A stretch of 64,000 nt of DNA from Octopus vulgaris (lineage: Eukaryota). Shown piece by piece: positions 5,362 to 59,290 of this stretch. Below the pieces are notes generated by a model, which saw only the letters and a list, made by a program, of their open reading frames with translations, had not been told where the DNA came from and made no database searches. The translations under genes and the position numbers were made by a program. Location: positions 16,430,001 through 16,494,000 of the forward strand of contig OX597827.1 in the NCBI GenBank assembly GCA_951406725.2. Direction: 5' to 3'. Position 1 is the first letter of the stretch, and each line of letters begins with the position of its first letter.

Positions 5362-5948
5362 AAGGCGGCGAGCTGGCAGAAACGATAGCACACTGGGCGA
5401 AATGCTTAGCGGTATTTCGTCTACCGCTACGTTCTGAATTCAAATTCCGCCCAGTTCGACTTTGCCTTTCATCCTTTCGGGCCAGTTACGCACTGGGGTC
5501 GATGTAATCGACTTAATCCGTTTGTCTGTCTTTGTTTGTCCTCTCTGTGTTTAGCCCCTTGTGGGTAATGAAGAAATAGGTATTTTGTCTGCCGCTACGT
5601 TGTGAGTTCAAATTCCGCAAAGGTCAACTTTGCCTTTCATCCTTTCGGGGTCGATTAAATAAGTACCAGTTACGCACTGGGGTCGATATAATCGACTTAA
5701 TCCGTTTGTCTGTCCTTGTTTGTCTTCTCTGTGTTTAGCCCCTTGTGGGTAGTAAAGAAATAGGTATTTCGTCGGTCGCTACGTTCTGAGTTCAAATTCC
5801 GCCGAGGTCGACTTTGACTTTCATCCTTTCAGAGTCGATAAATTAAGTACCATTTACGTACTGGGGTCGATATAATCGTCTTAATCCGTTTGTCTGTCCT
5901 TGTTTGTCCCCTCTGTCTTTAACCCCTTGTGGGCAATAAAGAAATAAG
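5362..5948 (+). mobile_element. SINE family B head followed by three tandem body units (168, 184, ~184 bp)
   Basis: Units start GGTATTT(C/T)GTC at 5411, 5579 and 5763. Confidence 0.9.
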
Positions 5949-12480: not shown

Positions 12481-12950
12481 CACAGGTGTATAATGACTGT
12501 ATGCATGCTTCTATGTATGTAAATGTGTGCATGTGTGTGTGTGTGTATGTATGTGTGTGTGTCTGTGTAAAACTTCAGATATGTTATACACACAGAGGTA
12601 CTCATACATATATTTGTATGCTTGACTCTGCATGAATCTACCTCCCTGTCTCCCCTATTTTTACAAGCACACACACACACACAACTACATACACGCGTGT
12701 GTGTGTGTGTGTAGGTGTGTTTCTGCATGGTTCAGAAAATAAGTCCTTTGTACAAAATGCTGTAATGGTACCCACAATGACTTATTATCCCTATGTTAGA
12801 CGGAGCTTCTGGAATAGATAGGGCCTGGTCGAACCTAATACCGCCTTCCAACCAAATGATTACTCGATCATTTTTCATGGCGTCTCTGGTTTCATGCTCC
12901 ACCATATAAGTACACAATCACGATGTCTCATATAATCTTTTCATTCTGCT

Positions 12951-13879
12951 ACATTTATAATTATGTCACATTCCTAATTGTGACATCGCTTCCTGTCACA
13001 TTCATAATTATGTCACATTCATAATTGTGACATCTCTTCCTGTCACATTTATAACTGTGTCACATTCATAATTGTGACATCTCTTCCTGTCACATTCATA
13101 ATTATGTCACATTCATAATTGTGATATCTCTTCCTGTCACATTCATAATTATGTCACATTCATAATTGTGACATCTCTTCCTGTCACATTCATAATTGTG
13201 ACATCTCTTCCTGTCACATTCATAATTGTGTCACATTCATAATTGTGACATCTCTTCCTGTTACATTCATAATTATGTCACATTCATAATTGTGATATCT
13301 CTTCCTGTCACATTCATAATTATGTCACATTCATAATTGTGACATCTCTTCCTGTCACATTCATAATTGTGACATCTCTTCCTGTCACATTCATAATTAT
13401 GTCACATTCATAATTGTGACATCTCTTCCTGTCACATTCATAATTGTGACATCTCTTCCAGTCACATTCATAATTATGTCACATTAATAATTGTGACATC
13501 TCTTCCTGTCACATTCATAATTATGTCACATTCATAATTGTGACATCGCTTCCTGTCACATTCATAATTATGTCACATTCATAATTGTGATATCTCTTCC
13601 TGTCACATTCATAATTATGTCACATTCATAATTGTGACATCTCTTCCTGTCACATTCATAATTATGTCACATTCATAATTGTGACATCTCTTCCTGTCAC
13701 ATTCATAATTATGTCACATTCATAATTGTGATATCTCTTCCTGTCACATTCATAATTATGTCACATTAATAATTGTGACTTCTCTTCCTGTCACATTCAT
13801 AATTATGTCACATTCATAATTGTGACATCTCTTTCTGTCACATTCATACTTGTGTCACAATCATAATTGTGACATCTCT
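12951..13879. repeat. Minisatellite of 47-bp and 30-bp units with internal inverted motif
   Basis: Units TGTCACATTCATAATT(ATGTCACATTCATAATT)GTGACATCTCTTCC. Confidence 0.95.
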
Positions 13880-14197
13880 GCCTCCTCTGGCTCTTGCAAT
13901 TCGCTTGCCTCTCCTAATTTCTTCCTATATTGTGTTCACCCATTTAGGTTTTCCCAAAACCAATCTTTCTTCCACAGAACGCAAGCTGAGTGCGATTAGT
14001 TCCTTACCTATGGTTTTTACCCTGCAGCCGCCATATTGCAGCTGTTTAAAGATGAATATTACTGATGTCTATTGCAACGGCCTCTGAGAGCTTACGAAGG
14101 TCGCAGGAAAACCCCTTCATCTAGACCACAGATTTAACATATGCACACACATACACAAACACACGCATAAGTATGTGCGCATGTATTATGTATGTAT

Positions 14198-33064: not shown

Positions 33065-33550
33065 GAAAAGGATGAAAGGCAAAGTCGACCTCGGTGGAAT
33101 TTGAACTCAGAACGTAACAGCAGACGAAATACCTATTTCTTTACTACCCACAATGGGCTAAACACAGAGTGTACAAACAAGGACAGACAAACGGATTAAG
33201 TCGATTATATCGACCCCAGTGCGTAACTGGTACTTAATTTATCGACCCCGAAAGGATGGATGGCACAGTCAACCTCGGCGGAATTTGAACTCAGAACGTA
33301 ACGGCAGACGAAATACCTATTTCTTTACTACCCACAAGGGGCTAAACACAGAGTGGACAAACAAGGACAGACATAGGTATTAAGTCGATTATATCGACCC
33401 CAGTGCGTAACTGGTACTTAATTTATCGACCGCGAAAGGATGAAAGGCACAGTCAACCTCGGCGGAATTTGAACTCAGAACGTAATGGCAGACGAAATAC
33501 TGTTAAGCATTTCGTCCGGCGTGCTAACGTTTCTGCCAGCTCGCCGCGTT
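33065..33550 (-). mobile_element. SINE family B tandem multimer (184-bp period)
   Basis: GACGAAATAC at 33123, 33307 and 33491. Confidence 0.9.
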
Positions 33551-41189: not shown

Positions 41190-41715
41190 GTAGTATATGT
41201 ATTTTATACATAAATATAAGTGGGGGAACCACTATGTGGAAACCCTTACGCTAGAAAGAGATACGCTATGGTCTCAACCGCTAAGAATTGTTCTCCAGAA
41301 AGTTTAGCTCACCAGAAATGAAAGCGAGCAAGACAAATGAAAAATAACAAAAATATAGATTAATAACAAACAATTGTTTCACTATCAATAAATTACGTAA
41401 TTTTACTTACACAACTTATCTGTAGATCTTCAGTGTGATCCTCTTTTATATATATATATATATATAAGACAATATATATGTTATTTTTCATTTGTCCTGC
41501 TCGCTTACGTTCTTAGTGTGCTAAAACCTTTCTTGAGAACAATTCTTAGTGGTTGAGTCCCTTTGCGGATCTATATCTAGCATAAGAGCGTCCACATAGT
41601 GGATTCTCTCTCATATTTGTGTATTAATAATATTTACTGAATCTCAGTCTTTTATGCGCTAAACCACTGGTGATATTAAATTAATATCCAATTTTTTCAC
41701 CCTCATTTTGACTTT
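41190..41715. mobile_element. Penelope pLTR-like element with diverged inverted arms
   Basis: 41190-41355 inverted versus 41475-41630; same family as 58572-59215. Confidence 0.75.
41362..41440 (-). ncRNA. Type I hammerhead ribozyme motif
   Basis: Minus strand ACA-CTGAAGA-T-CTA...TAG-T-GAAAC-AATT-GTT-TGT. Confidence 0.7.
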
Positions 41716-42275
41716 ATATATAAGAATAGGTATTCAAAGAGCCAATCAGAAGTCACTGTAAGAATTGTGTCATATCATATACATAGAAGAAAGTGGAGAG
41801 GAAGAATATCTCTGGCACATGAGGTGCAGGATGAGTGCACATACTAGGCTTAGTGGCCGGCAAAGAGTAAGGGAACCCCACAATTAAATTAGCGGTTAAA
41901 AGTAGATTACTAAACATCATTAATATAGATTTCTCATTTCTCAACAGCACGAGGCAGCAAATTTCTGAAAGTAGTGTTATAGGAAATAAGATATTCGTTA
42001 GAAAATGAAAAAGATTACGAAACATGGAAAAGTAATTGCAAACTGGCAATTCATTTCAAATTTCTCTTGCAAAACGTTTAAATAATATTTTTGTTTGTAT
42101 TTCGAAAAAAGTAGTCAATTTGCAAATTACTTATAAATGTAGCTTCTATATATATACATTAGATACATACATACATACATGTATGCGTAAATACATACGC
42201 ACACATGTATGTGTATATGTATTATATGTATATTTATGTATATACATACATATATATGTATATAAATATAAAGAC

Positions 42276-49337: not shown

Positions 49338-49755
49338 GAAGGCGGCGAGCTGGCAGAAACATTAGTACGTCGGGCGAAATGCTTAGCGGTATTTCGTCTG
49401 CCGTTACGTTGTGAGTTCAAATTCCGCCGAGGTCGACTTTGCCTTTCATCTCTTCGGGGTCGATTAAATAAGTACCAGTTACGGACTGGGGTCGATGTAA
49501 TCGACTTAATACCTATGTCTGTCCTTGTTTGTCCCCTCTGTGTTTAGCCCCTTGTGGGTAATAAAGGAATAGGTATTTCTTCTGCCGTTACGTTCTGAGT
49601 TCAAATTCCGCCGAGGTCGACTTTGCCTTTCATCCTTTCGGGGTCGATAAATTAAGCACCAGTAACGCATTGGGGTCGATGTAATCGATTTAATCCCTTT
49701 GTCTGTCCTTGTTTGTCCCCTCTTTGTTTAGCCCCTTGTGGGTAATAAAGAAATA
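49338..49755 (+). mobile_element. SINE family B dimer (184-bp period)
   Basis: Units at 49388 and 49572. Confidence 0.9.
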
Positions 49756-54175: not shown

Positions 54176-54975
54176 AGGCGGCAACCTGGCAGAATCGTTA
54201 GCGCGCCGGACAAAATACGTAACAGCATTCTGCCGGTCTTTACGCTCGGAGTTCAAATTCCGCTGAGATCGACTTTACCCTTTACTATTCCTCTGTTGAT
54301 AAAACAAGTGCCAGTTGAGCACTGCGGTCGATGTAATGGACTAGCTCACTACCCGCCCTCAAATTTCAGGTTTTATGACTATAGAGGAAAGAGTTATTAG
54401 TAATATAAATGTGGTGGATTATGGAGGCGAGCTTGCGATATTTCGTCTGCCGCTACGTTCTGAGTTCAAATTCTGCCGAGGTCGACTTTGCCTTTCATCC
54501 TTTCGGGGTCGATTAAATAAGTACCAGTTACGCACTGGGGTCGCTATAACCGACTTAAACCGTTTGTCTGTCCTTGTTTGTCCTCTCTGTGTTTAGCCCC
54601 TTGTGGGTAGTAAAGAAATATGTATTTCGTCTGCCGCTACGTTCTGAGTTCAAATTCCGCCGAGGTCGACTTTGCCTTTCATCCTTTCGAGGTCGATTAA
54701 ATAAGTACCAGTTATGCACTGGGGTCGATGCAGTCGACTTAATCCCTTTGCCTGTACTTGTTTGTCCCCTCTATGTTTAACCCCCTGTGGGAATAAAGAA
54801 ATATATATAAATGTGGGGGATAAGCAGAAATCATTAGAACGTCAGAAAAAATGCCTATCAGTATTTCTTTCAGCTGTTTAAGTTCTGAGTTCAAATGCGG
54901 CTCAAGCCAACTTTAGTTTTCACCATTTCGGAATTAATAACAAAGCGACAACAAAGTACCAGTTATGCTCTGGGA
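54176..54975 (+). mobile_element. SINE family B cluster including a 184-bp dimer
   Basis: Copies at 54176-54390, 54423-54800 (two units) and 54820-54975. Confidence 0.82.
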
Positions 54976-55755: not shown

Positions 55756-56932
55756 CTAAAAAATTGTGGATTTGTATAAAGGACACACACACAGACATTT
55801 TGCCATATATATATATATATATAATAAGCTTCCTCTTATTTCTTTATGAAATATAATAAAGACGTGGTCAAAATTCAATCTGCACACTCACTTTATAAAG
55901 TGATTTTCTTTTTATAAGTGTGGAAATATACATTATACATGTTGATGCAACGCCTGAAGAATGCAACGTTTAATATTTCTATCTTTTGCCAATTTCAATA
56001 AAAGACATCGCTCAGAAGTCTTAAATGTTTCCCGTTTCATAATTTCATAAGCATGCCTATCTCATGCGGCACCACAAGGACACACACTCACACACACGAC
56101 CTAGAGACTTTAAAAGACTATTTGCAACACGTCACGTCATCAAAAGAAAAACGGTGTGCATATCAGCTTAAGGTCATGCATGGTTATATTCTCAGAAAGT
56201 GCCAAAGGGACAGCAACATTGATAACCAGAATATTCGGAATATTAGCTCTCCCTTTAAAAGACATGTTGTTCCAATACAGGAGCAAGAAATAACAGCAAA
56301 ATATCTGTTGCACGAGAAGGAGAGGGATGCAGGCAGACCATTTCGAAGTGACAGTCATAAGTAGGAGTTATGCACGAAAATATCAAAATAAAAGCTTCTT
56401 ACGAGACACGCATAGTGTGAAAGCCGTAGGTAGAATAATAGCTAGAAGGCATTATATAGTATCACTCATAATAGGAAAAGAATACCTGTAGAATATTCCT
56501 GTGATTTGAAACAGATCAGGTGTAATAATTTGCGGGCAGCGGAACAATTTTGAGAGCAGTAGTGGAAATTATAAAATATAATAATAAATACGCCCTTTTA
56601 AAGCCTAGCCAGGCTCATGGCCCCGGTTTCCCGGTTTCAATAGCATATGTTCCCCAGCGATGAGAGACGTAGGCTCTCATCGCTACGTCAAAATAACCCG
56701 TGGGGTCGGATTGCTTGACCCATGTCAAGCCTCTCTTGAACAGCACAGTCTTCCTGGCATACATGATAATTTCTACATCTCTGTCGTTAATGCTAGTGAA
56801 GCCCCTAGCGAAAGAAAGCCCCTTAATCAGTAGTCTTTTGATATAGACGAGTAAAAATCGACGATATCAAATTGGGTGAATCTTGCCCTGCCTCTACTTT
56901 TGTTGGCGTCGAACCATGTAGTTACCTCGCAC

Positions 56933-57087: not shown

Positions 57088-57685
57088 TTTAAATACAAAT
57101 AAATGAAAGAATGGAGTTGAACGACGAATTAACAAAATTCCTTTATTTTCGACATATGTTTCGAAGGCTGCATATTCCTAATTTCGAAGGAATAAGGGGT
57201 GCATTATGCCGCCTTCTCATAAGGAAAAACAAGGAACTTATGTCAGCATCAAGATGCACAAAAACTTTTAGATGACTGCCCACACGGAGCCCATAGCGAT
57301 AATGAATGTTTTTAAAGAAACACTCATTATCGCTATGGGCTCCGTGTGGGCAGTCATCTAAAAGTTTTGTGCATCTTGATGCTGACATAAGTTCCTTGTT
57401 TTTCCTGATGAGAAGGCGGCATAATGCACCCCTTATTCCTTCGAAATTAGGAATATGCAGCCTTCGAAACATATGTCGAAAATAAAGGAATTTTGTTAAT
57501 TCGTCGTTCAACTCCATTCTTTCATTTATTTGTATTTAAAAAAACACACAAATTTCCACACGAAAGCACGTGATCTCTGCCCTAGGCATGTAGCTTCAAC
57601 CGTGTTTTTCTGACGTGAATTTGCTACCCAGGTATCGGTTAACCGAATTATCCATAATAAGATAATTCATTCAACTACTCAAATA
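57088..57685. mobile_element. Palindromic Penelope-like element with ~225-bp arms
   Basis: 57088-57311 is the reverse complement of 57318-57540 with about 3 differences. Confidence 0.88.
57389..57493 (+). ncRNA. Type I hammerhead ribozyme motif
   Basis: Stem I AAGTTCCTTGTTTTTC / GAAAATAAAGGAATTT; CTGATGA 57405-57411; stem II GAAGGC/GCCTTC; GAAAC 57466; ATAT; GTC 57475-57477. Confidence 0.82.
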
Positions 57686-58571: not shown

Positions 58572-59216
58572 ATATTTTTGTTATTTTTCATTTGTCCTGC
58601 CCGCTTACGTTCATGGTGTGCTAAATTTTTTTCTTGGGAACAACTTTTAGTGGCTAGCGTAAGGGAGTTCACTTTTAGTGGATTCCCTCTCATATATGTA
58701 TTAATAATATTTACTGAATCTCAGTTTTTTATGCGCTAAACCATTGGTGTTAAACTGATATTATTAAATTAATATACAATTTTTCACCCTCATTTTGATT
58801 TTAATTCTTAATTAATACTGTTCTCAAACCGGCGTTAACTACTGCAGTGAATTGTTTATGCGGTATTTATTTCCGGAAATTTGGCGCGCTGGACGAGGGC
58901 ATTTGAATAAAACTATGAATGTAATAGACCGTACTGTTCGTATTTTTGGCCTCGTGCTAATATATGGCGTGCAGTTCGACAAATTATGTTCTTGACAGAC
59001 TCTACTGACGATCTGCAAATTAATTGTGTAAGTAAAATTGCATAATTTATTAACAGTGAAACCATTGTATAGGGTTAATCTATATTTTTGTTATCTTTCA
59101 TTTGTCCAGCCCGCTTACGTTCATGGTGTGCTAAAATTTTTACTTGAGAACAACTTTTAGTGGCTAGCGTAAGGGAGTTCACTTTTAGTGGATTTCCTCT
59201 CATATATGTATTAATA
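58572..59216 (+). mobile_element. Penelope pLTR-like partial tandem (direct repeats 58572-58706 / 59082-59216)
   Basis: Direct repeats about 510 bp apart; homologous to 41475-41715. Confidence 0.78.
58999..59075 (+). ncRNA. Type I hammerhead ribozyme motif
   Basis: ACTCTA-CTGACGA-T-CTG...CAG-T-GAAAC-CATT-GTA-TAGGGT; 6-bp stem I with one G-U. Confidence 0.75.
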
Positions 59217-59290
59217 TATATATATATACATATATACATATATATACGCACACACACACACACACACACAAACACACATACACACACACA

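Follow-up and report, generated by a model that had tools for sequence, protein, structure and literature searches.

Two hammerhead-like motifs on opposite strands of a 64,000-nucleotide stretch of the Octopus vulgaris genome (contig OX597827.1, positions 16,430,001 to 16,494,000, here called the window) raise the question of what kind of element carries them, and whether their fold has been kept by selection. That two diverged copies retain CUGANGA and GAAAC, as the initial annotation had it, can be read directly at 58998-59076 (plus strand) and 41440-41362 (minus strand), and the same holds for the differences between them (stem II CUG/CAG versus CUA/UAG, proximal stem I CUA/UAG versus ACA/UGU, cleavage triplet GUA versus GUU) and, at both sites, for the U-U at the base of stem II and the distal stem II hairpin. 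Only the extent of stem I has to be revised: the three proximal pairs are as claimed, but the full stem comprises 7 bp, not 3. In the 59 kb motif (type I, 58998-59076), stem I pairs GACUCUA (58998-59004) with UAGGGUU (59070-59076), the core consists of CUGACGA (59005-59011) and GAAAC (59058-59062), and U59012 faces U59057 (U10.1·U11.1) at the base of a stem II that is made up of 3 bp (CUG/CAG, 59013-59015/59054-59056), a 2x2 loop and a 14-bp hairpin (AAUUGUGUAA/UUGCAUAAUU, 59022-59047) with a GUAAAA loop; the predicted cut, after GUA, falls at 59069/59070. The 41 kb motif, also type I (41362-41440, minus strand, core from 41433), has the same stem II layout and the U·U, with CUGAAGA as its core and a stem I of GAUCACA/UGUUAUU, in which a private G-to-U change breaks one pair relative to the UGUGAUU of its subfamily; its predicted cut, after GUU, lies at 41369/41368 on the minus strand.

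As annotated, the 59 kb motif is located just upstream of the second of two direct repeats (58572-58713 and 59082-59224, plus strand; 94% identity, offset 510 nt). Together they belong to a single-armed repeat copy of subfamily A (58572-59215, plus strand), i.e. one 510-nt unit plus a terminal repeat of ~145 nt. The first, pseudo-LTR-like repeat begins 13 nt beyond the position of the upstream cut, and the second runs into (TA)n at the first of two 3' end sites (S1), its last ~10 nt being ambiguous with the microsatellite. The 41 kb copy, as its sequence reads, is a two-armed insertion: a ribozyme-bearing arm of subfamily B (41192-41447, minus strand) is 5'-truncated just before stem I and ends at S1, and an inverted arm (41472-41716, plus strand) extends from ~+13 to the second end site (S2, ~+266) and ends in TA repeats. 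Besides the stem I mismatch at 41 kb, where the ACAAUUGU palindrome is intact, private damage is found at 59 kb, where loop 3 reads CAUU and the self-pairing energy is -0.9 kcal/mol, against -6.4 kcal/mol for the palindrome, which is present in 128 of 140 family copies. Since neither window copy has a second ribozyme in direct orientation and each carries such damage, both are probably dead, i.e. fossils. The proposed unit-length RNA could therefore not be released by the 59 kb copy, which has one ribozyme only, whereas tandem members elsewhere could release it.

A relaxed hammerhead descriptor matched five sites in the window, versus one match in total over ten shuffled windows, and the core pattern with U·U gave 173 exact matches in the genome (2.8 Gb, 227 contigs), versus none for the reversed control. 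With the Rfam models no hammerhead was found at 59 kb, at 41 kb or in a copy of the G-C sister group described below (E up to 10), presumably because the long stem II falls outside the models, so that long-stem U·U ribozymes are likely undercounted; over the whole window the Rfam scan was dominated by microsatellites. Other repetitive features of the window are a minisatellite array with a 47-bp period (12847-13998), a different dispersed repeat with four copies of ~350-420 nt that are ~90% alike (5482-5946, 33067-33550, 49339-49755 and 54439-54791), and a palindromic element of another family (57121-57534). This element carries a type I hammerhead of the G-C kind at 57405 on the plus strand (CUGAUGA, palindrome ACAUAUGU, triplet GUC), together with its mirror copy, which is mutated; a Hydra-like RT fragment is found at 56669-56928 (minus strand). 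A pair of minimal hammerhead-like repeats (31836, plus strand, and 40941, minus strand), with an AGAGC..GCUC stem II and GAAACGUH, shows one core change in each copy.

DNA searches with each window copy yielded at least 30 loci apiece among the best matches scored, and from the 173 exact cores 30 loci were taken, plus 47 more among the matches listed. After removal of duplicates, 149 copies had the 3' half of the motif; nine of these (truncated, deleted or false) were dropped, leaving 140. Both sites belong to one dispersed, non-coding repeat family with a unit of 510-535 nt and copies on most large contigs, in which the 140 copies of the U·U group form several subfamilies with ~2-5% internal divergence. 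The unit has a GC content of 0.32-0.33 and no LTR architecture, and the longest ORF with a Met start in a doubled unit measures 36-57 codons. Consecutive units with complete ribozymes occur in the U·U group at loci L074, L184 and L195; ribozymes in direct order are spaced 523-535 nt, with no ORF between them. One copy at locus L006, which has G-C at 10.1-11.1, the triplet GUC and another stem I, was the query that uncovered the sister lineage: a G-C group with 2,159 exact cores genome-wide, whose units are 70-74% identical to those of the U·U group. Within it, a young lineage is 99-100% identical at no fewer than 40 scored loci and forms 533-bp tandem arrays, of which the longest among the matches listed has 13+1 units.

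The suggestion that the ribozyme structure has been under selection is supported by the family alignment: in the collected genomic copies the stems covary and the core is conserved. For 19 copies, hand-picked to span the subfamilies, 95.6% of 475 stem cells are paired, compared to 29-41% in slid-structure controls, and 9 of 25 pairs have changed on both sides (6 of 7 in stem I alone), a level reached by 0 of 500 shuffles, although these counts concern sequences rather than independent events and are inflated by relatedness, ~8-10 lineages underlying them. A comparison of common and rare pair states, meant to separate lineage from decay, gave the same picture for all 140 copies: of the states found in at least five copies 19 of 21 are paired, compared to 7 of 41 among the rarer ones (with the commonest state per pair removed, Fisher p 5e-5). 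Core positions are conserved in 62-65 of the 65 copies that were found by BLAST instead of by the core pattern, with N7 taking all four bases. The triplet is GUA, GUU or GUC in 129 of 140 copies, and 136 have U·U at 10.1/11.1, a known and tolerated natural hammerhead variant (Perreault 2011, PMC3088659); in this group it stands in place of G10.1-C11.1. In two G-C sister lineages stem I has been rewritten, yet is still paired (UUUUGG/CCAAAA and GUUCGG/CUGAAC).

Beyond the ribozyme, folding models suggest that the unit as a whole has been selected as an RNA. Linear folding of whole units gave z-scores of -5.4 and -6.2 against shuffles, and circular folding -3 to -10 for the sense and -1 to -4 for the antisense strand (five units, 20 shuffles each), while a six-unit consensus contains 144 pairs, 23 of which have changed in a compensatory way, and has the cut 5' end folded back onto stem I. 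Stem III consists of 2 bp around AAUU, and being palindromic it implies cleavage of the dimer type (as a prediction). Palindromes of this kind have been described as the hallmark of cleavage as a dimer, and their activity in vitro as weak (Cervera and de la Pena 2014, PMC4209133); of nine predicted Xenopus retrozyme dimers eight did not cleave (Li, Clavereau and Pollet 2026, bioRxiv 10.64898/2026.07.22.740005). In most of six tested octopus copies the minimum-energy fold of the isolated motif is not the hammerhead, and intermolecular pairing of the palindrome appeared in only three of six co-folds; self-cleavage at GUH is what the motif predicts.

The 3' ends of 139 copies concentrate at two sites, mostly into TA repeats: 85 at S1 (134-182 nt after the cut) and 40 at S2 (237-294 nt after the cut), the others running into another unit (3), ending elsewhere (8) or at the cut (2), or having an internal deletion (1). 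An adjacent inverted piece accompanies 60 of the 139 copies. In a comparison of 60 rows with an inverted arm, S1 and S2 are combined in 42, the same site is used in 3 and an end is unclassed in 15. Once five double counts and two segmental duplicates are removed, S1 is paired with S2 on opposite arms at 35 of 38 classifiable old loci (p 7e-8 versus 50:50), and the same pairing occurs at 11 of 13 two-armed loci of the young G-C lineage, which come from 20 arrays chosen as long ones. The 5' ends decay smoothly, without a wall at the cut site, and 9 of 139 copies run past the upstream cut. Partial tandems, 5' truncation, an inverted 5' arm, two 3' end sites and a microsatellite target are all present, and by these features the insertion footprint is Penelope-like. 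The enzyme of a Penelope-like element (PLE) has been found to cut and extend both strands of AT-rich DNA, with two internal starts (Frangieh 2024, PMC11167929), so that the footprint of the repeat fits PLE priming. Twin priming in the style of L1 on one linear RNA is rejected, because the arms do not abut (within 25 nt in only 7 of 50 in the main comparison). Footprint and repeat architecture hence agree with the short non-coding retro-unit of retrozyme or Penelope type that was proposed at the outset. Two copies, L106 (minus 1565) and L187 (minus 1529), stop at the predicted cut site, the latter continuing into (TA)n and the former into an inverted Neptune-like PLE piece; it is possible, from where they end, that these are fossils of cleaved RNA.

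Compared with known systems, the repeat appears to work like an animal non-LTR retrozyme. Those elements likewise consist of non-coding, low-GC tandem units (32-33% here), each containing a single type I hammerhead, exist as dimers to multimers plus many monomers, and have been proposed to depend on PLEs (Cervera and de la Pena 2020, PMC7229834; Li et al. 2026). The octopus unit of 510-535 nt compares with 170-400 nt in the 2020 account and with 51-972 nt in the survey of Li et al. (2026), and the long stem II, the U·U and the dispersed insertions with a PLE footprint distinguish it from the animal non-LTR retrozymes as described there. Circles were demonstrated for the retrozymes of coral, mussel and axolotl (Cervera and de la Pena 2020); for the octopus family a circle is a proposal. 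Ribozymes in tandem, by which Li et al. define retrozymes, are found at the level of the family and in neither window copy. Their survey, mainly of vertebrates, draws its link between retrozymes and PLEs from co-occurrence and pseudo-LTR similarity, in the part used here by sequence and not by insertion footprint, and calls for mechanistic work.

The minimal dimeric hammerheads that Cervera and de la Pena (2014) described from the pseudo-LTRs of PLEs have in common with this family type I, a 2-bp palindromic stem III, a larger stem II and covarying families within one genome; G10.1-C11.1 is highly conserved there, whereas the window's group has U·U, and a stem I of 7 bp. The likeness to Hydra-clade PLEs as described by Craig (2021, PMC8557442) includes the (TA)n target, a hammerhead on the sense strand, U·U at the base of stem II, partial tandems and inverted 5' pieces. 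Unlike these PLEs, the repeat lacks an ORF, its stem II spacer measures 44-51 nt compared to short stems, and its two 3' end sites are ~100-130 nt apart compared to a tail of 30-40 nt; comparison by eye with the Hydra-1_Obim hammerhead, as given in that source, showed no match. The PAc Poseidon element of Anolis (Frangieh 2024) also has two internal RT starts downstream of its hammerhead, and cuts and extends both strands of an AT-rich target, but PAc is autonomous, its two sites are adjacent and showed no strand difference in vitro, whereas here there is one site per arm. A title-level search of mostly open literature found no published description of the family or of the one-site-per-arm rule.

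As to the enzyme, the Hydra clade is the best candidate for a partner, with a probability somewhat above even on the evidence of the genome sequence. Hydra families almost all target (TA)n, and by our own tally stem II starts from a U·U in 14 of 25 of them (Craig 2021, File S2/S1). A young Hydra-type PLE is present in the genome, with RWK, DKT, CxCX5C and a weak GIY-YIG match, open frames of up to 717 aa and at least 150 scored copies that are 99-100% identical; it forms 2.59-kb tandem and inverted arrays (L122:2948-5460; L124-L153), and has two main ends in (TA)n, +43 and +110 past its own hammerhead. Its hammerheads (all those listed) have CCGAAGA (U4 to C) and an extra U before GAAA, i.e. 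a non-canonical core that is fixed in a spreading family. At locus L297 the remnant of a Hydra-type endonuclease immediately precedes a U·U hammerhead that has the ACAAUUGU palindrome.

No ORF-linked parent of the unit was found among 170 family loci, and the RT-EN motifs (RWK, DKT, CxCX5C, GIY-YIG) occur in the neighbouring young Hydra family and not in the unit, which has no ORF. Between the unit and the non-coding region of the young Hydra element no significant homology was detected, nor was sequence shared with the terminus of an autonomous partner found among the best matches scored. Where a Hydra ORF stands beside a copy (L079 and L122), it is a separate insertion with its own end, a different hammerhead and TA repeats in between, and the Hydra neighbour at L006 is likewise separated by TA repeats and has a different 3' end and hammerhead of its own. 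Fragments resembling Neptune and Poseidon occur close to family copies as well, so that the PLE clade is not fixed. A Naiad parent, considered because of (TA)n targeting and an 'HHR_half_core' note, was rejected: by eye there is no likeness to the 3' end of Naiad_Ovul, and a text search found no family motifs in the supplement text that carries it. The ACAAUUGU palindrome is also carried by 1,981 short-stem cores (L266-L297), often as close inverted pairs and with variable positions 10.1/11.1 (U·A, U·U, A·G); as a partner sharing the palindrome these were rejected too, since a Hydra ORF is absent from the 30 loci examined, and the 3' regions of these cores are unlike that of the unit. Dimers between families via the common palindrome are conceivable from the sequence they share.

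With good confidence, then, the window holds aged copies of a non-coding 510-535 nt unit with one hammerhead (predicted to cleave as a dimer) per unit, likely inserted into (TA)n by a PLE enzyme, most likely of the Hydra clade. What is established is the covarying hammerhead, the young tandem arrays, the (TA)n targets, and the two fixed 3' sites that are paired on opposite arms. In the proposed life cycle, a tandem array would be transcribed, and neighbouring hammerheads would join through the ACAAUUGU palindrome into a complete stem III and cleave behind GUH, giving a structured monomer of ~530 nt with its 5' end again paired within stem I. This monomer would then, with about even chances, be ligated to a circle, an uncut multimer being the alternative template. 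Finally, a PLE enzyme would nick both strands of (TA)n and prime each at S1 or S2, and copying over variable lengths would yield the 1.2-unit copies, the tandem arrays and the head-to-head two-armed insertions. The unit is covered by contigs assembled from presumed RNA runs; their depth broadly tracks a DNA-like run, and they are blind to level, strand, ends and circles. An snRNA-type promoter was considered and rejected, the U2 upstream motif being absent from five units save for one weak match inside one ribozyme. The U2 snRNA loci themselves (L251-L265) have TAATTAA...ATCAGT upstream in 13 of 15 cases (by eye); at L256 and L263 the first base of the gene is joined to another upstream sequence.

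Which RNA served as template bears directly on the circle. The absence of a 5'-end wall at the cut site implies that the template was not usually a linear cut monomer, and the smooth 5' ends together with the nine copies that run past the cut leave a circle or an uncut multimer. Among 83 units from 20 young arrays, units differ by 1.34 substitutions within an array and by 1.06 across arms, compared to 3.71 between arrays, and such array-specific haplotypes, also across arms, favour a template of one unit (a bottleneck), as far as the sequences of the arrays go, a reading tempered by 14 mixed cases and by local homogenisation. It is possible, if on the whole doubtful, that the template was instead a multimeric read-through RNA, with the hammerhead cutting rarely or at another step and no circle being formed. 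Such a template would account for 5' ends crossing the cut site smoothly and for variants that occur in only part of the units of an array (14 mixed versus 23 fixed site-array cases); moreover, the autonomous Hydra element also makes its 2.59-kb tandems, and hammerhead cleavage was dispensable for insertion in vitro (Frangieh 2024). It is at odds with the haplotypes common to the units of an array, including those on opposite arms, with the compensatory selection on both ribozyme and whole-unit structure, and with L106 and L187, which end at the cut site (2 of 139 copies). The circle, in its full form, is a tentative proposal to which we give somewhat less than even weight: a viroid-like RNA of ~530 nt, structured over its full length, would be excised by a dimeric hammerhead and reverse-transcribed by rolling circle by a Hydra-type enzyme, with two fixed starts, one per target strand.

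An autonomous PLE that has this unit as its pseudo-LTR, with the copies as 5'-truncated debris, is unlikely. In the young Hydra monomer the non-coding part has a comparable length (~450 nt), and most PLE copies are truncated (Craig 2021), but the ribozymes in direct order have no ORF between them, no ORF-linked copy occurs among the 170 loci, and the lone pair of cores 2.8 kb apart (on C6), considered as possibly bracketing a full-length PLE, is a segmental duplicate. A satellite derived from one PLE end and spread by local tandem amplification, as has been proposed for vertebrate retrozymes (Li et al. 2026), is very improbable here, because even though unequal crossing over also yields homogeneity within arrays, the copies are dispersed over most large contigs with PLE-type (TA)n ends and a two-armed geometry.

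Taken by themselves, the two copies in the window are unremarkable, probable fossils. A PLE footprint with one fixed start per arm, on the other hand, bears on the inverted-repeat structures of PLEs that have so far lacked an explanation. As a young retrozyme lineage coexists in this genome with a young Hydra element that has open frames, the partner, the start sites and the circle can all be put to the test. If the proposed circle proves true, the octopus genome would hold both a spreading circle lineage and intact genes for its enzyme, and the retrozyme cycle could be rebuilt in vitro.
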